64,000 nt of DNA from Candidatus Eiseniibacteriota bacterium (GTDB lineage: Bacteria; Eisenbacteria; RBG-16-71-46), in the NCBI GenBank assembly GCA_038231135.1, contig JBBRLX010000013.1, positions 31,127-95,126 on the forward strand. Reading direction: 5' to 3'. Below the pieces are notes generated by a model. It did no database searches and had not been told where the DNA came from. It saw only the letters and a program-made list of their open reading frames with translations. The position numbers and the translations under genes are program-made. Shown here one piece after another: positions 5,751 to 51,975 of the stretch (its first letter is position 1; each line of letters starts with the position of its first letter).

Positions 5751-5806
5751 GGGCGAGTGGCAGAGGTCCGCGGACGACCCGTCGGGCGTTGCGGCGAATT
5801 CTCTAG

Positions 5807-5957
5807 CAGGCTGCTGAAAAAGGCGGTACCGATCGTGCCGGAATGCAGATCTGGCGTCCTGGCCGCGGACGGGTGCACGAATTTGCTGAGGTTTTCAAGT
5901 TCTTCTCGTCGGGCCATCAACGCGAAATGAGGTCCGGAAAGGTTTTTCAGCAGCCTG
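5807..5957. mobile_element. MITE-like non-autonomous element with 15-bp terminal inverted repeats and CTAG target-site duplication
   Basis: CAGGCTGCTGAAAAA (5807-5821) ... TTTTTCAGCAGCCTG (5943-5957), with CTAG at 5803-5806 and 5958-5961; no credible ORF inside. Confidence 0.7.
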
Positions 5958-7580
5958 CTAGCGTTCCCTGCGCACCAATACCAATGTCATGTCGTCGGTG
6001 CGCGGCTGATCTTCGAGGAATGCAGTCACCTGCCCCACCACCGCCACGGCCGCGCGCTCGAGCTCCGGCTCGCGGGCGTTGTCCGCCAGCGCCTTGGCGA
6101 GCCGGGCGTCGTCGAAGAACGCGTCGCCGTTCTGCGCTTCGGGCAGGCCATCCGTGAACACCGCCAGCAGCGCCCCCGGCTCGAGCGTCACCTCGCCCGC
6201 CACGAACGGGAAGTCGGCCAGCACTCCGACCGGCACCGCGGTCGCCTCGAGCAGCGCGGGTGCGCCGTCCCCGAACACCATCGGCGAATTGTGCCCCGCG
6301 TTCACATAGCGGAGCCGGCCGGTCGCGGGATCGAGACTGGCGATGAACATGGTGACGAAATGCCCGGCATCGGTGCTGCGATAGACGACGGCATTGAGCC
6401 GCGTCGTGAGATCCGCGGGGTCGGGGCAGATGTCGTACAGCACCCGTGCCGAGGACAGCACCGAGGACATCAGCAGCGCGGCGCCCATGCCCTTGCCGGA
6501 CACGTCGCCGACCAGGAACACCAGCGTGCCGTCCGCGCGCACGTGGAAATCGTACAGATCGCCGCCCACCTCGAAGCAGGTCTCGAGCTGGGCGTGGCAG
6601 CCCCAGCCCGGCACCACCGGGGGCTTCGTCAGCAGCGTGCGCTGGATGCGCGTGGCCGTCGCCAGTTCCTGCGCCATGCGCAGCCGGGCCTGCTCGGCTT
6701 CGAGCAGCCGCGCGTTCGTGATCTTCACGGCGGCCATGTTGCCGAGCAGCGTGAACACCTCGAGCTGTTCCTCGTCGTAGGACACGGTGAGCGCGTTGCT
6801 GTCGACGTACAGCAGCCCGAGCACCCGCTCGTTGTCGAACAACGGCACCGCCATCGCCGAATGAATGCCCTGCGACACGATGCTCATCTGCGCCTGGAAC
6901 CGCGGATCCATCGTGGCGTCCCGGGTGATCACGGACGTGCACTCGTTCAGGACCGTGTCCATGATCGTGCGGGACAGCACCAGCGGCTCCCGCGCGCCCA
7001 CCCCGCGAGTGCGGGCGGCGATCTGCACCGGCTCGGCACCGGGATCCTCGCGCAGCAGCATGATGAGCCGGGTCGCCGGCACCGCCTGTTCGACCAGCCG
7101 CAGCAGTTCCTCGCAGGTCTCCCGCAGCGGCCGCGGCAGCACCAGTACCCGGCCGGCCTCGGTGAGCACGCGCACCAGCCGTGCGATGTCGGGGCGCGCG
7201 CTGCGCGCCTCGGCGCGCTCGAGGATCTGCTGCGCCCGGATCTTGACCGACGACCCCAGGCCCACGGATTCGCTGAACTGGGTCTTTGGCTCGCCCGCAT
7301 CCGAGCCCATGCGCACGAGCACGTGGCCGAACTCGATGGTGTCGCCCACCGCGAGCGGGTGCACATCGCGCACGTCGACGCCGTTCACGCGCGTGCCATT
7401 GCGGCTGCCCAGGTCGCGAACCGCCCAGCCGCTGCCCTGGCGCACGACTTCGGCGTGCTCCTTGGACACGGTGGCGTCCGGCAGGTGGACGGTATTCTTC
7501 GACGACCGGCCCACGGTGAGCGTTCCCTCGAGCGGCCAGCTGCGGCGCTCGCCGTTGAGGACCGCCGTGAGTTCGGTCAT
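5958..7580 (-). CDS. FHA-GAF-SpoIIE (PP2C-type) Ser/Thr phosphatase
   Basis: FHA motifs VGRS..VSKEHA..DLGSRNGT; GAF 'SAMAVPL..LGLLYVD'; PP2C motifs VGGDLYD, GDVSGKG, NAGH, FTDGL, DDMT. Confidence 0.92.
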   Translation of the reverse strand: MTELTAVLNGERRSWPLEGTLTVGRSSKNTVHLPDATVSKEHAEVVRQGSGWAVRDLGSRNGTRVNGVDVRDVHPLAVGDTIEFGHVLVRMGSDAGEPKTQFSESVGLGSSVKIRAQQILERAEARSARPDIARLVRVLTEAGRVLVLPRPLRETCEELLRLVEQAVPATRLIMLLREDPGAEPVQIAARTRGVGAREPLVLSRTIMDTVLNECTSVITRDATMDPRFQAQMSIVSQGIHSAMAVPLFDNERVLGLLYVDSNALTVSYDEEQLEVFTLLGNMAAVKITNARLLEAEQARLRMAQELATATRIQRTLLTKPPVVPGWGCHAQLETCFEVGGDLYDFHVRADGTLVFLVGDVSGKGMGAALLMSSVLSSARVLYDICPDPADLTTRLNAVVYRSTDAGHFVTMFIASLDPATGRLRYVNAGHNSPMVFGDGAPALLEATAVPVGVLADFPFVAGEVTLEPGALLAVFTDGLPEAQNGDAFFDDARLAKALADNAREPELERAAVAVVGQVTAFLEDQPRTDDMTLVLVRRER

Positions 7581-7956: not shown

Positions 7957-9489
7957 TTGCTGTCGGTTTCGGTGGTCGTTCCGGCCTATAACGAAGAAGC
8001 GCTGCTGTCCGATACCCTCGACGCCCTGCTGGCCCAGGACTACCAGGGTCCGCTGCAGATCATCGTCGTCGACAACGCCAGCACCGACGGCACCGGCCGG
8101 ATCGCCCGGGAGCGCTCGGTCACCGTGGTTACCGAGCCCGACCGCGGCTACTGCAACGCGCTGGTCGCAGGGTTCGCCGCCGCGACCGGCGACATCGTCG
8201 CCTGCACCGACGCCGACACCATCGTGCCCCCCGACTGGATCTCGCGGTTCGTCGCCGAATACGAGCGCCATCCCGGGATCGTCTCGATCGGCGGCGGCAT
8301 CGAATTCGTCGACCAGAACTGGAAGAGCTGGTTCCTGACGGCGCTGATCCTGCCGCTCGTCAACGGGGTCGACCGGCGCAATCCCCAGGGACCGCACCTG
8401 TGGGGCGCCAACCTGTCGGTGCGGCGCACGGCATTCGAGGCGGTGGGTGGCTGGAACCGCGCATTCAGCCTGCAGGCGGACAGCGAGCTGTCGGAGCGGA
8501 TGCGCCGTGTGGGCCGCGTGATCCTGATTCCGTCGCTGTCCGTGCGCACGTCGTCGCGGCGCTGGAACCAGGCGCTGATGCGGAACATGTACCTGTATGC
8601 GTCGAATTTCGTGTGGTTCCAGTTGTTCCACAAGCCGCTGTATCGCGAATTCCCCGCGGTGCGTTCCGTGGTGCGATCCGCGACGCGCGAGGCGGCGGCC
8701 CAGGTGCGCCGGCCGGCGTTCGCGGTGTCGTTGGTCCTGGTCGGCGTGTTCGCCGGAGTCGTGTACTCGGCGCTCGCACCGCGGTCGAATGCGTTCGGCC
8801 GCACCTACTGGTCGGGCGCCACCACCGACAAGGTCGTCGCGCTGACGTTCGACGACGGCCCGAACGAGCCGTATACCTCGCAGGTGCTCGCGATCCTCAA
8901 GCGCGAGCACGTGCGCGCGACGTTCTTCCTGATCGGCTCCAACATCCGCCGCGATCCCGCCGCTGCCGCCCGCATCGCGCGTGACGGACACGTGATTGGA
9001 AATCATTCGGACACCCATCCGGCGCGCTTCGCGCTGAAGCCCGTGCCGGAACTCCGCCACGAGCTCGACTCGGCGGAGAACTCGATTCACGAGGCGACGG
9101 CGCTGTATCCGCGGTTCTTCCGGCCGCCCCAGGGACTGCGCTCGCCGTGGCTCATGGGAGTGCTGTCCGAGGATTCGCTGGTGGCGGTCACCTGGGACGA
9201 TACGCCGCAGGATTGGGACCCGCTGCCGCCCGACGAGCTCGTGAAGCGCGCGCTGACGCAGGCGCATCCGGGGGCGATCATCCTGCTGCACGACGGGATG
9301 AACCTGACGCCCGATGCCGATCAGAGCCGCACGGTGACCGCGCTGCCGCGCATCATCGATGGATTGCGGGCCCAGGGCTACCGGTTCGTCACGATCCCCG
9401 AACTGCTGGGCGGCCGCGCGTATCTGTCGCAGTGGCCCGCGGGACCGTCACGCGCCGTCGCCGTCAACCCGCGCCGGGACCAGCCCTGA
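7957..9489 (+). CDS. GT2 glycosyltransferase fused to a NodB-type polysaccharide deacetylase
   Basis: N-terminal VVVPAYNEE, VVDNASTDGT, TDAD; TM segment; C-terminal CE4 motifs LTFDDGP, GNHSDTH, FRPP, IILLHD. Confidence 0.9.
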   Translation: MLSVSVVVPAYNEEALLSDTLDALLAQDYQGPLQIIVVDNASTDGTGRIARERSVTVVTEPDRGYCNALVAGFAAATGDIVACTDADTIVPPDWISRFVAEYERHPGIVSIGGGIEFVDQNWKSWFLTALILPLVNGVDRRNPQGPHLWGANLSVRRTAFEAVGGWNRAFSLQADSELSERMRRVGRVILIPSLSVRTSSRRWNQALMRNMYLYASNFVWFQLFHKPLYREFPAVRSVVRSATREAAAQVRRPAFAVSLVLVGVFAGVVYSALAPRSNAFGRTYWSGATTDKVVALTFDDGPNEPYTSQVLAILKREHVRATFFLIGSNIRRDPAAAARIARDGHVIGNHSDTHPARFALKPVPELRHELDSAENSIHEATALYPRFFRPPQGLRSPWLMGVLSEDSLVAVTWDDTPQDWDPLPPDELVKRALTQAHPGAIILLHDGMNLTPDADQSRTVTALPRIIDGLRAQGYRFVTIPELLGGRAYLSQWPAGPSRAVAVNPRRDQP

Positions 9490-10864: not shown

Positions 10865-11054
10865 GGCAGGAGCCTCGGAACGATTCGCGGCGCGCTCACG
10901 GGCGGGAATTCGCGGCTCACGGGCCTGCGATGACAGGCGGCGATAGTAGCATGGGGCGGCGCGGGGTTCGAAGGAATGGCGTCATGCAGGCGCCCAGGCA
11001 ATCCGCGGTGCGCAGCCCGCCGAAATTGCCGGCCACGCACACCGCGGCGGCCCG

Positions 11055-11783
11055 TCACCGGTATCTCATCCTGAGCGCGCCCCATGACGCCGCTCGCACC
11101 GGCACCGCGCACGAGCCGCCCGTGGCATACATCACCGGCAGGCCCGGCAACAGCACGGCGCACAGCTCCTGCGTTCCCGCCACCGAGATGTTCCAGCTCG
11201 AGCAGTTGGTGCACAAGGCCTCGGTGATCAGTTCCGGGCGCGAGCCGTTACCGGCGCAACTGTCGCCGAACGAGGTGAAATTCACGCACAGGAACGCCTG
11301 GCCGAGAAACCGCACCGACTTCGACAGATGGAGCGTGAACTCATGAGGACCAGACACGACGCCGGCGAGCGTGAACACCTCCGGTGCCATCAGCGACGCC
11401 AGCGTATCCGGCGACCGGCAGGCCGAATCCCCCATCACGGCCACCACGGAGATTTCGACCGGCTGATCGCACGGATGCGCAACGTCCAGTGCCACGTGCA
11501 CGTCCTGGAAGGTCGCGCTATCCGGAGCGGGACACGTCGCGCACTCGAGCAGCGTGTAGTAGCGGTCGTTGGGCGGCAGCAGGTAATCCGCGCGATACAC
11601 GCCGGGCCCTGCCGCACCCATGGTGCATGCGGTCGACGATGGCGTGGGGGAACCCCCGATCCTGTACCAGGGTCCCGCCGGCAGCGGATGGACGACGGGC
11701 GGCGGTTTGGAGGGGGCTGCGAGCGCACTGCCGATCCCGAGGAGACATAGGAACAGACAGATACCGGGTATCCAGCGAGTCAC
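11055..11783 (-). CDS. Cys-rich secreted hypothetical protein with C-terminal 'VPVRAASWGALRMRYR' tail
   Basis: GTG start at 11783 followed by signal peptide (TRWIPGICLFLCLLGIGSALA); terminal SWG..R..YR motif. Confidence 0.7.
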   Translation of the reverse strand: MTRWIPGICLFLCLLGIGSALAAPSKPPPVVHPLPAGPWYRIGGSPTPSSTACTMGAAGPGVYRADYLLPPNDRYYTLLECATCPAPDSATFQDVHVALDVAHPCDQPVEISVVAVMGDSACRSPDTLASLMAPEVFTLAGVVSGPHEFTLHLSKSVRFLGQAFLCVNFTSFGDSCAGNGSRPELITEALCTNCSSWNISVAGTQELCAVLLPGLPVMYATGGSCAVPVRAASWGALRMRYR

Positions 11784-11955
11784 GGGAACCTCGGAAACGG
11801 CATGGGGGTGAGGCCCGGTCGTGCGCCCGGCGCGGGTTTCCACTTCATATCCGCGCACGGTCGGAGCATACTGGGCGCCGGAGACATGGGCAATCTCCTT
11901 CTCGACACCGGCCGGGCAATCCTGCGGTGAATGTTCCGCAATGAGGTGTGCAAGG

Positions 11956-14265
11956 ATGTCGCTGCGCCGCCTGGCTCTGCTCTCCTTCGCAATAGTATTG
12001 GTGCTGCTGGGTGGTTGCGCCCGGAAGTTGCGCCAGATCCTGGAGCCCAACCAGGCTCCTGCCGTCCGATTCGAACTGCCGCGCGTGGTGACGAAGTCCG
12101 CCCAGTCTCGAACCTACGAGGTTCGCTGGAAGGGGCTGGACCCGGACGGGCATGTCGACCACTACCTCGTTGCGATCGACCCGCCGTCTTCGGATCCAGC
12201 CTCGATCGCGTGGATGGCAACGGATCGGACATCGCAGCAGGTGGTGGTGGCGGAGCACATCGACGGCGGCCATTCCCAGATCCGCCGGCTCGTGGTTCGC
12301 GCCGTGGACGACCTCGGCGCCATGTCACCCGTTGCCTTGACCAAGCTGAATCCCGACAACGTGCCGCCCAGTGTGCGGATCACATGCCCGCTTGTGAATG
12401 CGTATCGGGATCAGTTCGGAAGACTCGTCTATGGCACGGCCTACTTCCCCGGAGCCGTGCGCGTCGAGTGGCAGGGCGACGATTCGGATGGCACCGGTAC
12501 GCACCGTCCCACGCTCTACAAGTATATCCTGCTCGGCCCGGACACCGAGTTCCCGCCTCTACTGGCGATCAGCAACCCGGATTCGTTCTACAACTACTAC
12601 GCCCATCATCCGTCAGGTCCGTGGACCGGTTGGACGGATCGCGCGCCCGATTCGACATTCGTCACCCTCAGGAATCTGGCCAGTGGTCGTCACCTGTTCG
12701 CCGTGATCGCGTTCGACGAACAGGGCGAGGATTCCCATGTGCCATCTCTTGCGATCAATATGCTGTCGATCGTTTCATCGAACACGGGGACCCTCAATCC
12801 GCGCTTCAGGGTATTTGCCGAAGATATGGAATATGGACGACCCAACGGCCTATCGCCCGCAGTGTTTCGCGTTCAAGTGCCGGAGTTCACTTCGATACGC
12901 TGGCATGTCGAACCCGATTTCGAAACCTGTGACCTGATGAACCAGTATCGATGGGTGCTCGACCCGGCGGCCGTCGATGATTTCACTCCGCGCTCGGGCG
13001 TGAACGACATCCATCACTGGAGCGCGTGGAGCCAGGCGGATACTCTGGCGCGATTGGGTCCGTTCCAGGCGCCGCTGCCGCCCAAGCGCGATGTTCACCT
13101 GCTCTACGTCGAAGGCGATGACGGTCTGGCCCGCAGTCGCGCGATTATCTCGCTGATTGTCGTCCCCCCGACCTTCACAAAGGATGTGCTGATCGTCGAC
13201 GATACTCGGCTGCGTCCGGACTTCGTCGTGGGCGGAGCACTGCAACCTCCCTCCGGTCCATGGCCGACGGCCGCCGAATTGGACACGTTCCTGTATGCGC
13301 GCGGCGGCGTGACGTGGCAGGGACACCTGGAAGGCACTGTCAGCCTGCCCGGGATGTTCCACGGCTACTCCTGCGACACGCTCGGCACCCGCGGACTCGG
13401 ATTTGCCGTGGTCCCGCTTTCGACGCTGCTGCAATACCGCCGCGTGATCTGGATCGCCGATGGGTTGTCTGCGGCACTCGTCAAGCCGCCCAACGATCCC
13501 GTGGCCCCCGAGACCTGGCTCCGGTTCATGGGTGGACACGGCCCGATGGTGCTCGCCACCTACGTCCGCCTCGGCGGAAAGCTGTGGCTCATGGGCGGCG
13601 GGGCCGCGTATGCCATTTCGGACCCGGTCAACGATCCTAGCAACGACGTTCCGACGAAGACCTATTCCTCTGCGAGCCCTCGCAATGAGCTCGGACCGGG
13701 CCGGTTCATGTACGACATCGCCAAGTGGCAGTCTGAGTATCGCATCGCACGGCCGGCTCCCAGGTTTGCGCGCGCCCGCGGACGCTTCGCGGGGACGGCC
13801 ACTTATTCGCAGTTGCCCGCCGCTCTGCACCCGAAGTCGCCGATCACGGATCTCGTCGCACTGGAAGCTCCCGGTCGCAATCCCGCGGACTTCTATCAGA
13901 CTGTGGAATCCGTCGAGTTCCTGCAGAAGCCGAATCCGGTCGTGGAAGACGTGGGCGGTCCCGTATCGACGCTCGACACGCTGTTCCGGGTTTCCGCACC
14001 CACGCTGCCCGATTCCGGTGAAGGCAATACGGGCGTGGACCTCGAACGCAATCCGGAATACCCGGTCATGACATACGCTCACGGACCATCATTGATGGGC
14101 GGCTCGATGGTGACCACCGGCTTCCCGATCTGGTTTCTGCAGCGCGGGGAATGCCGTCAGATCGTGGACTTCGTGATGCATGACCTGTGGGGGCTGAATC
14201 GGGCGGCAGTGCCGGCCGCGGCGGCCGCGCGGCGGGGCGCAATGACTCGATCCTTGAACCGGTGA
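11956..14265 (+). CDS. Large lipoprotein of unknown function with Ig/FN3-like domains
   Basis: Lipobox LVLLGGC after a basic/hydrophobic signal; 'VRWKGLDPDG..VRAVDDLG' and 'VEWQGDDSDG..FAVIAFDEQG' beta-sandwich repeats. Confidence 0.75.
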   Translation: MSLRRLALLSFAIVLVLLGGCARKLRQILEPNQAPAVRFELPRVVTKSAQSRTYEVRWKGLDPDGHVDHYLVAIDPPSSDPASIAWMATDRTSQQVVVAEHIDGGHSQIRRLVVRAVDDLGAMSPVALTKLNPDNVPPSVRITCPLVNAYRDQFGRLVYGTAYFPGAVRVEWQGDDSDGTGTHRPTLYKYILLGPDTEFPPLLAISNPDSFYNYYAHHPSGPWTGWTDRAPDSTFVTLRNLASGRHLFAVIAFDEQGEDSHVPSLAINMLSIVSSNTGTLNPRFRVFAEDMEYGRPNGLSPAVFRVQVPEFTSIRWHVEPDFETCDLMNQYRWVLDPAAVDDFTPRSGVNDIHHWSAWSQADTLARLGPFQAPLPPKRDVHLLYVEGDDGLARSRAIISLIVVPPTFTKDVLIVDDTRLRPDFVVGGALQPPSGPWPTAAELDTFLYARGGVTWQGHLEGTVSLPGMFHGYSCDTLGTRGLGFAVVPLSTLLQYRRVIWIADGLSAALVKPPNDPVAPETWLRFMGGHGPMVLATYVRLGGKLWLMGGGAAYAISDPVNDPSNDVPTKTYSSASPRNELGPGRFMYDIAKWQSEYRIARPAPRFARARGRFAGTATYSQLPAALHPKSPITDLVALEAPGRNPADFYQTVESVEFLQKPNPVVEDVGGPVSTLDTLFRVSAPTLPDSGEGNTGVDLERNPEYPVMTYAHGPSLMGGSMVTTGFPIWFLQRGECRQIVDFVMHDLWGLNRAAVPAAAAARRGAMTRSLNR

Positions 14266-14292
14266 ATCAAGTCTCCTGACCTTGTGCCGGAA

Positions 14293-14475
14293 TCAGGGTG
14301 TGAGCACGACCCGGCGGGTGATGGTCGAGGGGCCGCATCGAAACCGTACAAAATAAAAGCCCGCTCGATCATTCGGCCCCGGCGTCCACGTCGCCTCGAA
14401 CTCGCCCGGATCCCGGTCGCCCTGATACAGCGTCGCGATCTGGCGGCCGATGATGTCGAATAATACGAGACGCGA
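14293..14475 (-). pseudogene. Remnant C-terminal FlgD-Ig/Por-type sorting domain
   Basis: 'RLVLFDIIGRQIATLYQGDRDPGEFEATW..AGFYFVRF..TITRRVVLTP' matches the C-termini of other secreted proteins in this window; upstream frame reads as non-coding with no credible start. Confidence 0.6.
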
Positions 14476-15133
14476 ACGCCGGCGGCCGCCTGAGCCGTCC
14501 GCTCGCACCCCAAGGTGAACACGGAGGGAAGGAGTTGGCCGCCGGCGGGAAGTCGGCACCCGCGGGCCCGACCTTCCGCGCCGGTGTGCCCAAGGGTGTC
14601 GGAGGCTGTGGGCGGGGCCGCTTGTCCCTGAGCCCGGCCGAACGCGAAAGCGTGAGCTCGAGCCGCTGCTCGAGCGAGAACGCGCCACGCGGAGGTCGGC
14701 TCAGGGGGCGCCGTCCACCAGGCCCGACCCCGCCGTCCGTCAAGGTGGAGGCCCGCAGGCACTACCTTGGACGGGAACTGCAGGCTCCGTGGTAGCCTTC
14801 CCAGACCTACGAGCGGAAGGCCCAACTCGTTCCGGCCAGCCGCTCCGAAGGGAGTCGGCGGCCGAGGGAAAGTCTGCGCCGCGCCCGGGCGCGGTGACCG
14901 TTCCCGTGAATTGGAGAAAGCGACACGGGGCGGCCCGAATCGGACATGGCGCGGGTCGGTGTCACCCTCCGTCTGTCCATCCGTGGACGCTTGGTGACGG
15001 TTGGTGGGCACGGCTGCGATGCAAGTCGCTGTGGGACCCCAGCCGCGTCCTGGCGTACAATTTGCGTCGAGGGGCGTGACGTCGCCGGCCCCAATAGCAG
15101 TCAGTGTTCATCCGCTCAGGGGTGATTCCGTCT

Positions 15134-16438
15134 ATGAAACCTTGGACCGCTTCGTACTTTCTCGTCGCTACGTCACTGCTTCTGGTCTCGATCGTCGCGC
15201 ATCCCGCGTCGGCCGCGGCCACCGGTGACCTGGTCTGGTCGCTGCAGGTGAGCGGCGACCGTGCGCAGCTTGTGGTGAACAAGTTTGCCCAGTCGTCGGG
15301 GGCGTTCCCGACGCCCTTGCGCAACATCCGCGTCTCGCGTCTTCAGCCCCGGAACACGGGAACCGGCGAAGGCCGCATCCTGTCCCTTGATGGCTACCTG
15401 TCGCCGCTGGAGGTCACCGAGAACGGCGAGATCACGGCCGGCGCGAGCGTACCCCAGAGCGTGCCCTTGTCGTTCGTCCCCACGCGACTGGTTTCCGGCG
15501 GTGGGGCCTTCCTCATGCCCAAGATGCCGGAGCGAATGAGACCGCTGGCAATTCCCGCGACGTTCCGGGCACGCTACGAGGTGTCGATTCCCGCTCTCGT
15601 GGATTCCGCCGATCGCCTCGACCTATGGACCGTCTCGCCGGACAAGAGCGTGGCCGTGGTCAACACGGGTCGCTCGACACGGCTCATCAACATGGCCACC
15701 GCGGCCGCGACCGATATGCCCGAGGGACCGCTGGGTGGGGTGTGTTTCGCCCCACGCGCCACAATCTTTGCCGCGGCAGCGATCTCGGGTCCCAGGCCAC
15801 GGATGGGCGGACCGGCCCTGGCCTATTGCGTGACGGTCAGGAACTGGCGGACCGGGCAATCCTTGAAGAGCGAGCCGGCCGGCGGGGTCAGCAAGTTGGC
15901 ATTCCTGCCGTCCCGCGACTATGTCGTGTTCACGCGGCACAACGGCGGTAGGCCCGCCGAAACGGTGGCGATGAGCACGACGACTGGAGTGTCGACGATC
16001 CTGCCGGGTATCCCCGACGGGGATCGCTACTACTCCGCCACCGACGGATTGCACATGTTGGTCGTGAAACCCGTGCTCACGCGGGGAAACGAGGAGCTCG
16101 GCTATGGCAGGGCCTCGTACTACGACATCACGGACCTCGGCAGTCCGAAGCTGCTCGCGGAGTACGACGCCAGCGACTTGATCCTGTCGGGAGCGGTGAG
16201 TGACGACGGAAAGCTGGTGGCCCTGCAGGTGCTCGAGAACGGCGACGCCACGCGGCTCACGAGACGGGTGGTCGTTTTGGATCAGGACCTGCACGTGGTG
16301 TTCGAGCCCGTCCGGCGCTCTCCGGACCGAGGGGTCCAGTTCGCGGGACGGTACCTGTTCACGGGCATCCAGGGGAACACGGTCGAGTTGATCGCGGCGA
16401 GGCCTACGTCGATTAGCGCCTTTGACTTCAACCGGTAA
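15134..16438 (+). CDS. Secreted hypothetical protein, probably beta-propeller (WD40/TolB-like)
   Basis: Signal peptide MKPWTASYFLVATSLLLVSIVAHPASA; repeats 'VSPDKS', 'FAPRAT', 'FLPSRD', 'ATDGLH', 'VSDDGKLVA'. Confidence 0.6.
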   Translation: MKPWTASYFLVATSLLLVSIVAHPASAAATGDLVWSLQVSGDRAQLVVNKFAQSSGAFPTPLRNIRVSRLQPRNTGTGEGRILSLDGYLSPLEVTENGEITAGASVPQSVPLSFVPTRLVSGGGAFLMPKMPERMRPLAIPATFRARYEVSIPALVDSADRLDLWTVSPDKSVAVVNTGRSTRLINMATAAATDMPEGPLGGVCFAPRATIFAAAAISGPRPRMGGPALAYCVTVRNWRTGQSLKSEPAGGVSKLAFLPSRDYVVFTRHNGGRPAETVAMSTTTGVSTILPGIPDGDRYYSATDGLHMLVVKPVLTRGNEELGYGRASYYDITDLGSPKLLAEYDASDLILSGAVSDDGKLVALQVLENGDATRLTRRVVVLDQDLHVVFEPVRRSPDRGVQFAGRYLFTGIQGNTVELIAARPTSISAFDFNR

Positions 16439-16449
16439 AGGAGCGGGCC

Positions 16450-17925
16450 GTGATCAAGACTGCTCTCTCTGGCGTTCTTACCTTGGTCTGCCTCTCCGGC
16501 GCCCCCGCGAGGGCGCAGCAGGTGTTTCCAGGCAATCCGCTCCCGAACACGACGAATCCGGCGGTGATCAACAAGTTCATGCAACTGGATGTCGTCGACG
16601 CCGGCAACCTGCATCCCGCCGTCGACATCACGGCGAACACCGGGGACGTCGTTCGCGTCCCCCTGGCCGCGGGGAAGACCGGCATCGTTCAGTCTGTGGA
16701 GTCCGACGGGATCGCCATCAGCGCCACGGACCAGCAGAATGGGCAGTACGCGCTGATCCACCTGATCCACGTGGTTCCCAACCCGTCCCTGTCGGTCGGG
16801 ACGCCCGTGACGTCCTCGACGCAGGCCGGCACGATCATCAGCGGGCCAGGTCACCTGCACCTGACGCTCTATTTGTCCTCCGCCTTTTCGTGGGGAGGGG
16901 AGGACATCGTGAATCCCGAGATCTTCGACTTCTCGGGGAGCTGGAAGACCGACACATACTACCCGGAGATCGATACCCGGACGGACTACATCCTCCAGCC
17001 GCCCGGACAGATGACCTACTGGTGGGTCTTCGCTCATGACCAGGAGAACGCCGACCCGAGATACCTCAACGGCATCTGGGCGTTGAGCCTGGAGATCGAC
17101 GGCGTCGAGGTGGACGGTTTCGCGTTCGACAAGTTCCTCGGCAAGTCGGGGTTCTATCCGCCCACCGCGTCGGAGTACTACTACTGCACGGCGCCGTCCT
17201 GCATTCCACCGACGTCGGGATTCAACAATCCGAGCGTGCTCGAGTACAAGCTGGGATGGCTCACCCAGGGGGGAAGGCATCTGTGGCAGATCAAGGCGTG
17301 GGACACCGTCGACAACCGCGCGGTATACCCGGATCTCCCAACCGGGGCCCTCGCGAGCATGGGGGGCGAAATCCTGGACGACGGGACCGTCCGGCTCACG
17401 TGGTACCTGATCTCGGCGGACGGAGCGAGCAGCTTCGACGTCCTCCAGGCCCCTCAGGAGATCGGTCCGTACGAGAAGGCCAATACCGATCCGATCGCGG
17501 TCCTGGGGGACCAACAGACCTACCAGTTCCTGTCGAAGATTCCTGAGGGTTGGGCGACCGTCTGGTACCGGCTCATGGAGAACCATGCGGATGGCACGAG
17601 CGTCCAGATGACAGAGACGAGCGTGAAAGCGCCTCCGTTGATCGAGACGGTCCAAGTGGTCCCGAACCCGAGCGACGGCATCGTCACGGTCCAGGCGTCG
17701 CTGGCGCGGACCGACATCGGCAGGGTGGCCATCTACGATCCCAGCGGTCGCAGGGTGAAGCTCCTGTACTCCGGCGCGCTGGCGCGAGGCACGCAGCGGT
17801 GGACCTGGGATGCGACGGACAGCGACGGCAATCGCGTCAGCCCCGGGAACTACTTCCTCGTCATCGACGCCTCGCAAGCTGGCGAACGCGTCGTTCACCG
17901 GGCCAAGGTCGCGGTAGTTCGCTGA
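16450..17925 (+). CDS. Secreted M23-like metallopeptidase with C-terminal FlgD-Ig/Por-type domain
   Basis: Signal peptide; M23-like ligands HPAVD (HxxxD), 'LIHL', GHLHL (HxH); C-terminus 'VVPNPS..IYDPSGRRVK..WDATDSDGNRVSPGNYF'; AAGGAG RBS upstream. Confidence 0.65.
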   Translation: MIKTALSGVLTLVCLSGAPARAQQVFPGNPLPNTTNPAVINKFMQLDVVDAGNLHPAVDITANTGDVVRVPLAAGKTGIVQSVESDGIAISATDQQNGQYALIHLIHVVPNPSLSVGTPVTSSTQAGTIISGPGHLHLTLYLSSAFSWGGEDIVNPEIFDFSGSWKTDTYYPEIDTRTDYILQPPGQMTYWWVFAHDQENADPRYLNGIWALSLEIDGVEVDGFAFDKFLGKSGFYPPTASEYYYCTAPSCIPPTSGFNNPSVLEYKLGWLTQGGRHLWQIKAWDTVDNRAVYPDLPTGALASMGGEILDDGTVRLTWYLISADGASSFDVLQAPQEIGPYEKANTDPIAVLGDQQTYQFLSKIPEGWATVWYRLMENHADGTSVQMTETSVKAPPLIETVQVVPNPSDGIVTVQASLARTDIGRVAIYDPSGRRVKLLYSGALARGTQRWTWDATDSDGNRVSPGNYFLVIDASQAGERVVHRAKVAVVR

Positions 17926-18182
17926 AACGCAGGAGCGGTCTCCGTGGCAGGCCCCTTGCCCAGCCTCACGAGCGGAAGGCCACCTCAACGCATCCTCGCT
18001 CGCCTCAGCGCGCATCCCGATTTCTGTCTCGCCGGCCACCACGGCCGGCCGTATGCTCGATCTCGGCGATTCGGACTTCCCTCGAGGAGCCCCGCGAGGA
18101 TTAACCCGGACACCCGTCCACTCCCCGGACCCGCGGACAACCCTGGCAACGCAGCCCGGGGGTGGCGGCAAAAATTTCCTGA

Positions 18183-18765
18183 GCGGCCCGCTCTGCCCGC
18201 GGGCCGTTTCCGCTGTATCGCGCGCGCACCGTCCGTGCCCGAAATGATTCGCGAGGGGTCAGGGCCCCCGAGCGACAGGCCCACAGGGCCGTCCATTTCG
18301 TGGCGCCGGACAGCTTCGGTTTCAGGTCGGCGGCCGGCTTGCGAGCCGGACGACGATCCCAAGACGGGCCGCCCTTCAAGGCGGCACGGCGCAGCCTGAG
18401 TGTGGCCCGGTGATGAAAGACGTATCTCATCACCGGGCCACACTCAGGTGGAAGCGAAGCTGTCCGGCGCCGTAGCCGAGACAGAACGCTGAACAGACGC
18501 AGGTGAAACACGCGTCGTAACTGCAAACCATTGGGACGATGGTTTGCAGTTGTTCCGAGCCCGGCCGGGACGTGCCAGCGGCACGTATCGGCCGGGCGAT
18601 GGGCGGTCTGGCTCGGCGGAGTGCGACGGACGGTGTGCGCGCAAGCCAAGGGTGAAGGCCGGGCGCATGCCGGCCGAGGGGGCGGGGGACTGACGCCCCC
18701 TGCTCCTGCGTGCCGGACCATCTGGCCGACCGCGGACGGTCGGCGGGTGTCGAATTTACGACAGC
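18183..18765. ncRNA. Candidate large structured ncRNA or structured DNA element
   Basis: Perfect inverted repeats of 22 bp (18395-18416/18427-18448), 17 bp (18302-18318/18455-18471) and 13 bp (18519-18531/18539-18551), plus several 7-9 bp stems; no credible CDS. Confidence 0.4.
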
Positions 18766-18842
18766 ACGGCCGCAGGCGATCTCAAGCTTCCGAAGCCCCG
18801 CGCTCAATCACTTGACGGCCTTCTCCACAGGCGGCCCAAGAC

Positions 18843-20472
18843 CTACTTCATCGCTACGAGCCGCCGCGTTCCATGGAGCCTACCGTCCACGAGGAACCGA
18901 AGCACGTAGATTCCGGGGCCCGATTCCAAGCCGCCGGCTCCTTCCCGCCGCCAAATTATCGTGTGCTCACCAGCTGACTGCGCGGCGTCGACCAGCGTCG
19001 CGATTCGTCGCCCATGAATGTCGAACAAGTCGAGCTTGACCATACCTTGCTTGGCTACAGTGTAGGCGATGCGGACCGCGCCGCTCGACGGGTTCGGCCC
19101 AATGGCTCGGATCCCGGAAACGTATCCTTCGCCGTCTCTCACGCCGAGATACGGCGTCAAGTAAACGGACGCCTCCGATGACATCCCCGAGCTACCTGTC
19201 GCGTTCACTGCCGCACGTAGTAGAACACTGAGTCGGTCGACGGCGGGGTTTGGTCGAGAAATGATGTGCCCGTGAGAGGGCCGAAAATGACCGGGGGCGC
19301 GGTGGGATACCGCTGTCGGACCGTGGCGCAATCGGTCAAGTGTACCCAATCGCGATACAGGTAATAGCCGGTGACGGTCCCAGCCGACGCCGTCCATGAT
19401 ATCTGGACGCCGCCCTCGCTCGTGCTCACCGTCGCCGAGGTGTTCGTTGGCGTAGAAGGTGGCGTCGAAGACGTTCCCTGGGTTCGGGCACTCGTCGTGT
19501 ACCCCGTGGTGACCCCCGGTACGTTCAGCTCATAATAGTAGGCGCGATTATAGGTGGCGGGCACTGTCCACTGGTAATGGCGGTTGTCAGACGTGACAGA
19601 AAGGTCGTGGCTGTCGAACGACCCGAGCAACGCATACGGCCCCCAGCACGCATCGGAAGATAGAATTTGGTACGTGTAGCTCCTCGATGGGTCGCTCTCC
19701 TCCCAACGGAGCGTGTCACCCGCCGTCGCGGGTGATGCCGTAAACGCGTAGCTGACCTCAGTCGGCGCATCGTAAAGGTGCTCTATCCCCTGAATGTCCC
19801 AAAATTCCGGTGTGATTTGGAACGTGCCGCACTCAAGCCCGACCCCCCACATGGTCACTGAATCGCAGGCCGCAATGCTCGCGTTGTTATAGGGTGGCCC
19901 GACATCAAAAAGCCCCCACCAGTGCCCCATCTCATGGGTCAGCACGCCGGTGAGGTCCGCGTGCGAGTAGGTGGGATCGCAGTTGCTCGTATAGCAATCG
20001 GTCACCCAGTCAAAGGTGGGGTTGTCGCCACGGACATACGTCCTGCAACGCTTGTGGGTGCCGTCCGGGAAGTATGAAATGAACGTGATTGCAAGTGAGC
20101 CACTCGTTGGGGATCCCCAGTAGCTCGAGTACACGCTGTTGCTTAAGACGTCCACCATCAGCGCCTTAGTCGTTCTGTGCCGGCCGATTCGATGAACACC
20201 GGGAAGGACGTGTCGTCGTACCAAGTGCCATAAGCATCGAAGACGGTCTGGTTGATTGTCGCGTTACCTATGGGGGTCTCGGTGATTGAGCCCAGGACAC
20301 CGTAGAGAAGGTACGACCCCGAACTGAAACGGTGGCAATAAATGCCACCGCCGTAGTTATAGCGCGAAACCACGTAGCAATCACTGGATTCGGGACCGCA
20401 TTGGGCGTGCACGTTGGACGCGAAGGCTTCCCCGACAATCATCCCCATTATGCGCTTAGAGAGCATGATCAC
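18843..20472 (-). pseudogene. Secreted metzincin (matrixin-like) protease with FN3 and FlgD-Ig/Por-type domains, split by two single-base frameshifts
   Basis: Three consecutive ORFs (20158-20472 signal peptide; 19205-20224 HEMGHWWGLFD + Met-turn 'VTMWG' + FN3; 18843-19397 sorting domain) join into one ~540-aa frame by adding one base at ~20173 (GAA^CG) and one at ~19211 (CGG^CAG). Confidence 0.8.
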
Positions 20473-21302
20473 TCCTGCCGGGGGTGGGCCGCCGCGCGTA
20501 GACGGCTGACGGTTTGCGTGAGCGAGGCCCCCAGGGCAGGGACGAGGTCGCGCCGAACTGCTATGGCCCCGCCCAGTACGCCCACAACTTCGTACGCGCC
20601 ACCCTCACCGGCCTTCAGCGCAAAAATGGTCGTCGAATCCGGGTCTACGGGTCCGTAAGTCGTGTACACACGCAACTGGCTGGTGGGCAGTGTGCCGGTG
20701 ACCACGCTGTCGACCAACACTTCCGAACAGTAAATGCGTCGTCCGCCAATCGTACATGGAGAAGAGCTACGATGAGCACGGCCCACCACGATGAGCGCGC
20801 TATTCGAGGCAAGCCCCTCCAAGCTCATCCGCTTGATGCCGTTTGCTACGGCAGACTCAGCCCCCTGAAAGGCAGTGAGGCGCACGACTCCGCCGTCGCC
20901 ATAGAACTCAGGATGAAGGGAGAGCGCCAAGCGTCCATCCGTCAGCGGATTCGCGAACAGGATGCAACGCGTAGGCCCCCCGCGCACCCAACCCTCGACC
21001 ATTCCCCTCCATGAGTTTACGTAGGTTGGGAAGTAGAGGCGAACCGTCTTCTCTCCGCCGTCGCCTTTCAGCCAGCGGTCAGGCCTGAAGCTGACCCATG
21101 CCCAAAGCGTACCTTCCTCATCGAGGCTGTCATGGACAGCCTCTGCCGTGCCGACGCCGATGAGCTTCGACTGACTCACGGCAAAGTCGACCTTTTCCTG
21201 CACGGTGAGGGGATGGGCCGGAGGACGCCAACTGGTGGCGCGCGCGGGTGACGCGGCGCAGAGCACAGAAGCGAAAATGAGGATGGCAGGAAGAGATCTC
21301 AT
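20469..21302 (-). CDS. Secreted hypothetical protein with two tandem OB/TIMP-NTR-like repeats, translationally coupled to the protease
   Basis: Signal peptide MRSLPAILIFASVLCAASPARA; repeats 'LTVQEKVDFAVSQSKLIGVGTA' and 'MSLEGLASNSALIVVGRA'; GTGA overlap with the protease start. Confidence 0.65.
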   Translation of the reverse strand: MRSLPAILIFASVLCAASPARATSWRPPAHPLTVQEKVDFAVSQSKLIGVGTAEAVHDSLDEEGTLWAWVSFRPDRWLKGDGGEKTVRLYFPTYVNSWRGMVEGWVRGGPTRCILFANPLTDGRLALSLHPEFYGDGGVVRLTAFQGAESAVANGIKRMSLEGLASNSALIVVGRAHRSSSPCTIGGRRIYCSEVLVDSVVTGTLPTSQLRVYTTYGPVDPDSTTIFALKAGEGGAYEVVGVLGGAIAVRRDLVPALGASLTQTVSRLRAAAHPRQE

Positions 21303-21554
21303 TCCATGCCTCCACGGCTAACGCGAACATCACGTCCGGTCAAGACTGCCGCCCAGAAAACATACATTACACAACCCCGACGAGACTTTTACTACGCACT
21401 CGCAAATCTTCTCACGATATGTGCCCCAAGCCCAACAGGGTCGGACCACGGGACCGGGGACGTTCGCCAACGAAGACTGGAGAGCGCCGCAACAACAGCA
21501 ATGCGGGTGGTTGGCTGGGGCCGTGGTGCGAAGGGTCATCGGGAAAATCCGAAC

Positions 21555-22322
21555 TTACAACTCCACGCCCTGCTCCCGGGCGAGCTGCTTGATCCGGGCG
21601 GTGAAATAGGCGCCAGCATTGGCCACGCTCCCAGCGCGCCGGGCTTCCTTGGTCTCGGAGAGAGCGCGGTAAACGATCTGATCTGGCACCCGCTGCGCAA
21701 CCTTCCGATAGAAGCCCATCGAGTGGCGATCGCCGAGCTCTTGGAGCATCTGTTCGGCTAGGTCACTGGTCTTGATCAGTCGATCCTTGGATTGCGTAGC
21801 AACGTTAACGTTCTTAAGTACACCCTCGAGTAACGTACTCATGCTGGGGATATTTTCCCTCCCTGAGGAGGAAAAATCCCCCCTTGATGAGGAAGAAATC
21901 CCCTTTACGGGTGGTGGTTCGCTGGCCTGTCGGGGCTGCTCGGGACGTAATGGGGAAAATTTCCCCATTACGCGTTCACGGGTACTCTTGGCGCCCGAAG
22001 TCACCCGTCGCAACAACAATTCCACGGCATCCTCGTCAACCAGCGGAACCTCGAAAAATACCCGGTAGAGGTCCGTGGTTCGGAACGGTCGCCCGGTCTG
22101 AGGATCGATCGCGTGATCGGCTTGGCGCTTGATGAAGCCGTGCGTTTCGAGCACCACGAGGCACTTCCGCAGCGTCTTGCGATCCTTGATGCCGCACTCG
22201 CGAGCGAGTGTTTCCTGCCGCGTGCGCCAGTTGTCCCGGATCTCTCCGCTTCGGGCGTTGTAGTAGCAGTGCTTCCGCAGGTTCACGTACACGGTCGTGG
22301 TGGTGGGCCCAAGCATGGGCAC
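21555..22322 (-). CDS. Phage/plasmid-type HTH replication initiator-like protein, N-terminally truncated
   Basis: wHTH-like 'QETLARECGIKDRKTLRKCLVVLETHGFI'; low-complexity linker with 7-aa repeats; helical C-terminus 'ELGDRHSMGFYRKVA..NAGAYF'; lower GC than backbone; begins abruptly at a junction with an FG-GAP fragment. Confidence 0.6.
   Translation of the reverse strand: MPMLGPTTTTVYVNLRKHCYYNARSGEIRDNWRTRQETLARECGIKDRKTLRKCLVVLETHGFIKRQADHAIDPQTGRPFRTTDLYRVFFEVPLVDEDAVELLLRRVTSGAKSTRERVMGKFSPLRPEQPRQASEPPPVKGISSSSRGDFSSSGRENIPSMSTLLEGVLKNVNVATQSKDRLIKTSDLAEQMLQELGDRHSMGFYRKVAQRVPDQIVYRALSETKEARRAGSVANAGAYFTARIKQLAREQGVEL
21843..21970. repeat. Iteron-like 21-bp degenerate repeats inside the replication-initiator gene
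   Basis: TGAGGAGGAAAAATCCCCCCT (21864-21884) and TGATGAGGAAGAAATCCCCTT (21885-21905), 16/21 identical; related GGGATATTTTCCC (~21847) and GGGGAAAATTTCCCC (~21952). Confidence 0.5.
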
Positions 22323-22651
22323 CGGTCGAGATCGCGCACGACGAGGTCACGAGCTGGTTCCACGGGCCCGAACGGCCTCAGGATCTCGAATCGCAGATCA
22401 CCCAGTCCCCTGAGCCAGCCTGCCGGCGTAACGACGTCGAGCTTGCCGTCGCCGTCGAAATCGGCCGCGATGGGGACCGTCGGAGGCCCGGCCAGGAGTC
22501 CGTATGGGCCGTGGAACGGCAACTCCTCGGCCCACAGCACCGAAGGCGCACCGACGACCGCAACGATCAGCAACCCCGCGGACAGCGCTTCGGCGGATGC
22601 CCGGACGAGCCGAGGCCATCGAACGCGAGTTGCCGGCTCCGAAGCGATCAC
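22283..22651 (-). pseudogene. N-terminal fragment of a secreted FG-GAP/VCBS repeat protein
   Basis: Signal-like segment, then 'ADFDGDGKLDVV' and a second repeat 'DLVVRDLDR' that breaks off at ~22322; start uncertain. Confidence 0.6.
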
Positions 22652-22772
22652 TACTTGATTGTATCCCGCTTCCAGGTTCCAGCGCTCCACGAAAACCCGG
22701 TCGCCACCTTGGCGCCCCCCCTCCCTTCTGGAATGATGCGACCGGAGCCACCCAACCCGTCGGGAGTCCCAC

Positions 22773-51923: not shown

Positions 51924-51975
51924 GCAGGCTGCTGAAGAACCCGATTGCTGCACTCGGGGTCCTTCAGCAGCCTGC
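51924..51975. repeat. REP-like palindrome sharing ends with the 5807-5957 MITE
   Basis: GCAGGCTGCTGAAGAACCCGA (51924-51944) / TCGGGGTCCTTCAGCAGCCTGC (51954-51975); degenerate extra copy GCAGGCTGCC at ~51903. Confidence 0.65.

Follow-up and report, generated by a model that had tools for sequence, protein, structure and literature searches.

A large, covarying three-domain fold in MOBC-type mobilisable islands, candidate signal of the transferred DNA strand

To our knowledge, the route by which transferred single-stranded DNA becomes double-stranded is known for very few integrative elements, and we know of no way to find such second-strand signals by sequence alone. The locus analysed here offers one candidate for such a signal, backed by covariation, in MOBC-type mobilisable islands of an uncultured phylum. 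It is a gap between genes, rich in palindromes, at positions 18183-18765 of the window, by which we mean the whole stretch of 64,000 nucleotides under analysis. A preliminary description had offered two ideas for it, an undescribed multi-domain non-coding RNA (ncRNA) or a folded single-stranded DNA site, for origin or packaging, of a decayed element whose replication initiator (Rep) remains nearby. We show below that the gap contains a real, conserved and apparently undescribed structured module of MOBC-type mobilisable islands; the literature searched returned no description of the fold.

The conserved unit is a core of 423 nt on the forward strand (18220-18642), in which an outer helix of 17 pairs, P1 (18220-18236/18626-18642), joins three branched domains, A, B and C. 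Domain A (18240-18300) is a 7-bp stem, CGAAATG/CATTTCG (18240-18246/18294-18300), around two short stems, one of them with a tandem G.A mismatch. Domain B (18302-18471) begins with a 17-bp stem (18302-18318/18455-18471), a conserved G.G mismatch and a 5-bp stem, which enclose two short hairpins (18334-18349 and 18368-18385) and a long one with a perfect 22-bp stem (18395-18416/18427-18448). Domain C (18475-18617) has a mismatched basal stem (18475-18480/18612-18617) around three hairpins; one hairpin lies at 18519-18551, and the third (18559-18597) is present in the window only. The core is followed by variable hairpins (18643-18765, including one at 18725-18744) without a U-tract terminator. 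It is preceded on the same strand by an approach (18158-18219) composed of a G-rich tract, an A-rich tract, a short hairpin (18183-18207) and a pyrimidine-rich linker. This approach is a candidate location for a nick or for a transcription start, and its G-rich tract may resemble a MOBC nick site. Every helix listed in the preliminary description was recovered at its position; P1 and the basal stem of domain C had been overlooked.

The fold is far more stable than expected from composition. The 583-nt region has a fold energy of -374.8 kcal/mol on the forward and -354.2 kcal/mol on the reverse strand. The comparison with dinucleotide shuffles that the preliminary description had proposed gave z of about -12 (-11.9 and -13.3 respectively), with none of 100 shuffles as stable on either strand. 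Across 213 tiled 300-nt windows of the 64 kb, the best was 18301-18600 (z -8.0) and the runner-up reached -2.9. The core itself folds better on the forward strand (z -17.1, 20 shuffles), on which all eight of its small internal mismatches are purine-purine and unpaired bases are rich in A and G. A long perfect stem alone is not unusual in this genome, which has 44 perfect inverted repeats of at least 17 bp with partners no more than 1.5 kb apart. Many of these belong to repeated families that we take to be MITE/REPIN-like. The element under study is present in a single copy.

At least two families of palindromic repeats of 120-160 nt occur in the genome, with examples at 5803-5961 and 51924-51975 of the window. 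Palindromic repeats are found on contigs C1, C2, C7, C14, C15, C16, C18, C25, C28, C34, C37 and C40; their outer arms of 18-28 bp differ between copies, yet are perfectly complementary, and they carry tandem G.A mismatches on one strand. The top inverted-repeat cluster of the genome is a 746-nt nest of palindromic repeats with perfect arms of 20-38 bp (G000 C15 67007-67752).

Several simple identities were considered and rejected. The gap was correctly described as non-coding: no coding frame scores positively across 17950-18850, and a coding remnant was dismissed for want of any coding signal. Nor did it match a recognised RNA class, again as first described: no Rfam 15 family reached the gathering threshold in the 64 kb (the best weak matches were generic hairpin models far below it) and no tRNA or tmRNA was detected at the element, the tmRNA of the genome being elsewhere. 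Searches of loci L122, L119 and L173 gave no Rfam match. No consensus promoter and no terminator, U-tract or otherwise, was found in the gap. An assembly artefact was rejected, as one contig from each of two DNA runs, which may be the source of the genome, spans the element without difference. A REP linked to a RAYT was also rejected, the one Y1 gene of the genome lacking such flanks. This only Y1 transposase-like gene (G000 C11 108721-109062) follows a LexA-like gene, has no flanking hairpins and is possibly domesticated.

Relatives of the fold were found through the Rep gene. A scan of GTDB contigs with a Rep alignment provided six loci, which together with four earlier Rep loci made ten that were searched. 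In one of them, L116, a model built from domain B of the window alone matched positions 13268-13436 on the reverse strand (36 bits, E 2e-5). The whole architecture is present there (region z -12.5), and the fold lies about 2.4-2.8 kb downstream of Rep on the opposite strand, the same arrangement as in the window. The contig, from a record titled Saccharibacteria and of about 70% GC, is probably mis-binned. Used as a query, L116 returns the window (E 2e-8) and, as the only clear match among 206 genomes besides that of the window, genome G147 (80% identity, E 2e-66), which scores 52.5 bits with the window-only model. L116 and G147 are clear homologs. Eight of the ten Rep loci (L029-L031, L049, L117, L118, L120 and L121), several of them short or cut by a contig end, yielded no member.

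We also screened 38 regions around the Replic_Relax genes of the phylum, which gene content suggests is Eisenbacteria; 32 of the 206 genomes carry such a gene. This added two identical copies on contig C7 of genome G077 (profile E 0.016, nested repeats of 14 and 21 bp, z -14.6). They share the order of the three domains, the ACTGGAAA hairpin and the approach sequence. G077 is ranked as a probable member of the fold family only, because its score with model R3 (26.7 bits) is no better than that of a false match, a coding gene in L176 (27.5 bits), and its sharing of exact 6- and 7-mers is no more than that of shuffles. The two copies (L172 and L173) are part of a ParA-ParB-fold-relaxase block present in two places 21.3 kb from each other, with no difference in the 1.7 kb that was compared. 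The order of sequences in the approach is, by eye, common to the window, L116, G147 and G077. A further locus, L119, on a contig titled Zixiibacteriota, has a nested fold of 248 nt (1834-2081) with stems of 19 and 20 bp (z -13.3) between Rep and Replic_Relax; having no sequence match to the element of the window, it is considered an analog rather than a proven homolog. A possible second analog, in another Replic_Relax region of G077 (contig C26), is an 18-bp inverted repeat around a branched fold (L164 4673-4945), which reaches z -10 against 8 shuffles on the strand opposed to ParA.

Of the 32 genomes of the phylum with a Replic_Relax gene, two yielded a member within about 10 kb of it. Most such elements therefore lack the fold or have a version that is not recognisable; it is either confined to a single lineage of elements or too diverged for these methods. 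BLAST with the window sequence in 101 and in 206 related genomes returned no homolog, only short scattered matches, the best of which lay inside a PhoR-like gene; such negatives are weak, because the BLAST covering G147 missed its true homolog. Single-sequence models (R1 and R2) over 150 genomes and searches of plasmids and phages with the window sequence were likewise without homologs, plasmid blastn giving short chance matches only. Exact patterns gave 0, 19, 0 and 40 matches in viral contigs and two in metagenomes, all of them chance, and none in genomes. Four weak R3 matches in genomes (E 0.003-0.02) do not have established membership. A sliding 300-nt fold scan of 42 loci was too blunt an instrument, the G077 member reaching z -2.7 only.

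The homologs show that the structure itself has been retained. In domain B, aligned by plain MAFFT for three sequences (window, L116 and G147, two of them 80% alike) with the structure drawn from these same sequences, 96.8% of 155 cells are paired, and 16 of the 53 pairs have changed on both sides against two that have changed on one. None of 500 shuffles reached this, and slid controls attained at most 49% and 2. The homologs thus show the compensatory changes, and the gap lacks the Rfam match, by which the preliminary description had proposed to test its ideas. P1 is kept in L116 and G147, its innermost pair being T-A, G-C and C-G in the three sequences, and further two-sided changes are seen by eye in P1, in the stem of domain A, which reads CGAAGGGG/CCCCTTCG in L116, and in one hairpin of domain C. 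The ACTG(C/G)AAA hairpin of domain C occurs in L116 and G077 too, with a two-sided change. The perfect 22-bp stem of the window is an interrupted hairpin in both homologs. One hairpin of the window copy has lost its internal loops, so that duplex length seems to outweigh loop detail.

The genes around the relatives identify the type of element. L116 includes an integrase, Replic_Relax, a coupling-protein ATPase, ParA, ParB, Rep and restriction genes, with DUF2958 beyond the fold; G147 includes ssb, a coupling protein, Replic_Relax and an integrase next to a tRNA-like sequence (judged by eye). In G077, ParA, ParB and a 547-residue protein without Pfam match are followed by the fold and then by Replic_Relax, which also stands beside the fold in L119. 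PF13814, the Replic_Relax family, corresponds to the MobC family, which in integrative mobilisable elements is described as having VirD4-type coupling proteins for partners (PMC5357655). L116 has defence cargo in addition: a ThsB-like TIR protein with a dCMP-deaminase-like gene (462-1751), and a methylase with an XcyI-type restriction enzyme (10917-12976).

The fold has a constant orientation in these elements. Its better-folding strand is antisense to the core genes in all five loci (window, L116, G147, G077 and L119), although the preference is small in L119 (4.7 kcal/mol). The 5′ end faces the start of an operon running away from it. In G077 and L119 this is the relaxase gene, upstream of which the fold starts, facing away, at 200 and 30 nt respectively. 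In G147 and L116 the 5′ end faces a conserved leader of about 350 nt and then ssb (G147) or the DUF2958 operon (L116). On the chromosome map the L116 fold is about 9.5 kb from the relaxase gene.

The copy in the window has lost this setting. It is located in an island of about 11.7 kb (10964-22690, the right end placed by eye) between preA-like and SpoIIE-like genes, which adjoin each other in G001, a genome of the same genus with the empty site. The island holds the core, leader copies, a Rep remnant and genes for secreted proteins with FlgD-like tails, and is without integrase, relaxase or coupling protein; the whole genome has no match to PF13814 and no reverse transcriptase. The Rep remnant, an HTH_36 replication-initiator-like gene on the reverse strand (21555-22322), lacks about the first 60 residues of its relatives. 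The secreted-protein genes (18843-20472 and 14293-14700) seem to be broken up between several frames, as would be expected of an island in decay. The element copy of the window is an orphan and probably idle.

The leader, which lies between core and ssb in G147 and between core and DUF2958 operon in L116, persists in the window as a detached forward-strand copy (14470-14840; 74% identity over 334 nt to G147, E 3e-49). It has the invariant complementary blocks CACGGAG (14520-14526) and CTCCGTG (14785-14791) and a TG-n-TAnnnT box (14790-14798). The leader also has a GTCAAGG/CCTTGGAC stem with a non-canonical spacing of 20 nt. A degenerate stub of the leader end (17935-17985, forward strand; 79% over 47 nt to 14780-14822), in which the -10-like box is broken, remains closer to the core. 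The leader (window 14470-14840, L122 1070-1420, L116 13690-13990) has its more stable fold on the template strand, where RNA parameters give z -3.5 to -5.2, and is closed by the invariant blocks, followed by the extended -10-like box, which makes it a Frpo-like candidate in its own right.

Of the two initial ideas, the folded single-stranded DNA site of a decayed Rep element has fared better, because the Rep search led to the first homolog, in which the fold is placed and oriented as it is in the window. The packaging role proposed with it has not: since the element is an integrative mobilisable one with a MOBC-type relaxase, its likely role is in transfer and second-strand synthesis. By analogy with known systems, the reading we prefer, at about even odds, is that the fold works as a single-stranded DNA signal of the transferred strand, a priming site comparable to an sso or Frpo. 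The folded strand would be the transferred one, by comparison with F, whose leading genes have the transferred strand as their template, and the nick would be placed just 5′ of the core, given that the fold faces away from the relaxase, ssb or DUF2958 operon. The fold would then enter the recipient early and offer a duplex platform on which the second strand could be primed. RNA polymerase or a primase might use it, perhaps for early transcription in the new host also, and it would in this way help the island to restart copying after entry into a new cell. The analysis found neither a nick site nor an oriT and did not pinpoint the strand that is transferred.

The closest known systems support this comparison in part. 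Like sso1 of ICEBs1, which adjoins nicK and is orientation-specific, and the ssos of rolling-circle plasmids, whose function depends on structure, the fold is non-coding, structured and strand-specific, and is near the relaxase region in some members (PMC4595007). Two traits of ssos are present: secondary structure on one strand, the same in five of five loci and accompanied by covariation, and an element with a single-stranded phase, apparent beside the homologs, the genes having been lost from the island of the window. Unlike sso1, of about 200 nt and three stem-loops (PMC4595007), the fold has 405-522 nt and three branched domains; it belongs to a MOBC-type mobilisable element rather than an ICEBs1-type ICE and is likened to ssos by structure, not by Bacillus sso sequence. 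In F, which has Frpo1 and Frpo2, Frpo2 folds upstream of ssb (PMC9849209), and leading genes are described as having a template-strand bias (PMC11541004, PMC12282955). As with the Frpo/ssi sites of F and ColIb-P9, the folded strand is the template of the neighbouring ssb in G147 (PMC9849209, PMC11541004), and the adjoining 350-nt leader shares this strand preference and has an extended -10-like box. The neighbouring gene is of the leading type in G147 (ssb), DUF2958 in L116, and the relaxase instead in G077 and L119. The core differs from Frpo/ssi sites in being far more branched, in lying about 460 nt from ssb with the leader between, and in that a promoter search of the folded core rebuilt no canonical -35/-10 pair. 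The leader with its extended -10-like box is, moreover, directed towards the core along the folded strand, the arrangement expected of an ordinary promoter for an RNA.

Size also counts against an sso- or Frpo-like site, as does the lack of a recognisable member in most Replic_Relax genomes. The ssos in the sources cited have 170-340 nt and a few stem-loops, and a three-domain fold of 420-520 nt is more than priming is known to need. We entertain, more tentatively and with some doubt, the broader proposal that MOBC-type elements carry in their transfer machine an undescribed class of large (400-520 nt) three-domain folds, either a DNA scaffold beyond the known sso or a mobilisation RNA. The RNA alternative in its specific form, a new large structured ncRNA with a core of about 420 nt, whose ends P1 would bring together and whose transcription would be directed away from the mobilisation operon, is unlikely in our estimate. 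Such an RNA would act in trans in the transfer or maintenance of the element, akin to the sgm-sRNA of SGI1, whose mobilisation requires a self-encoded RNA (PMC9299015). Both are conserved non-coding parts of the mobilisation region of an integrative mobilisable element; they differ in the proteins involved (tyrosine-recombinase-like MpsA/B in SGI1, MOBC here), in size (the SGI1 RNA core has about 200-280 nt by deletion ends) and in that our fold is known from DNA sequence only. An RNA would agree with the pairing of the two ends and the three multi-way junctions, which are conserved with 16 two-sided changes, as well as with the conserved G.G and G.A mismatches and the A-rich junctions, and a covarying multi-domain structure, one trait of large ncRNAs, is indeed seen, in three sequences only. 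In G147 and L116 a TG-n-TAnnnT box lies upstream at a distance of about 135-170 nt, on the strand required, and the hairpins 3′ of the core could end a transcript. Yet the window has this box in broken form, G077 has no leader, there is no U-tract terminator, and loops vary freely among homologs.

The make-up of pairs and loops further disfavours RNA. G-T pairs account for nine of 638 confident pairs in the five cores, whereas the 16S, 23S and RNase P RNAs of the host have 61 in 614 (p 8e-12). This comparison pools L172 and L119, which are not proven homologs, with the other elements and uses a control that is not matched in GC and rests on predicted folds. Loops, pooled in the same way, give a similar contrast: triloops are 12 of 42 in the fold loci against two of 65 in host RNAs, tmRNA included, and GNRA loops are two of 14 tetraloops against 15 of 25. 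The pairs and loops typical of large ncRNAs (G-U, GNRA, UNCG) are scarce, and pair and loop make-up is DNA-like, which leans towards DNA, although only one of 12 triloops is a stable C(GNA)G DNA triloop. The purine-rich asymmetry of the strands is not decisive, because the MITE/REPIN-like DNA repeats of the same genome share the one-strand pattern. The initial suggestion of an undescribed ncRNA thus retains its covarying fold outside any Rfam family and loses ground on pairs and loops.

A place for the fold as a structural part of oriT, recognised by the MOBC relaxase or the coupling protein in nicking, pumping or re-circularisation, seems improbable to us. The position directly upstream of the relaxase gene in G077 and L119 would agree with it, as most oriTs are reported to be hairpin-bearing sites in large intergenic gaps ahead of the relaxase gene (bioRxiv 10.1101/2024.01.30.577996), but L116 has its fold about 9.5 kb from that gene, and the hairpins known from the vicinity of nick sites are far smaller than this fold. 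We consider very improbable that the fold is nested palindromic debris of MITE/REPIN-like repeats without a role for the element. Like these repeats, it has long perfect arms and few G-T pairs, and on one strand its loops are purine-rich and it has tandem G.A mismatches; the genome has several palindromic families with 20-28-bp arms and similar loops. Unlike these multi-copy sequences of 120-160 nt, it is single-copy rather than dispersed, three times larger, tied to one type of element and without similarity to those families, and debris is largely refuted because other genomes have kept the order of the three domains, their orientation and the setting in a mobile element. An orphan RNA of the retron msr-msd type is hardly credible: domain B, an inverted repeat around two short hairpins and a long one with an unpaired G, fits the retron pattern given in PMC7736814, but the genome has no reverse transcriptase and none was seen in the L116 and G147 proteins that were scanned, the homologs have an interruption in the long hairpin, and domains A and C and P1 would be left unexplained. 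If the DNA reading is true, the fold would be a natural, conserved multi-junction DNA structure; if it is an RNA instead, horizontal transfer would have a new class of large RNA linked to it. The case also serves as a caution that strand-biased, covarying folds in mobile elements need not be RNAs.

The Rep genes contain palindromic sequences of their own. Palindromes or repeated inverted units occur inside their variable middle in the window (21946-21972), L029 (14315-14345), L049 (8422-8738) and L117 (about 9000-9050), and are probably iteron-like origin sites.
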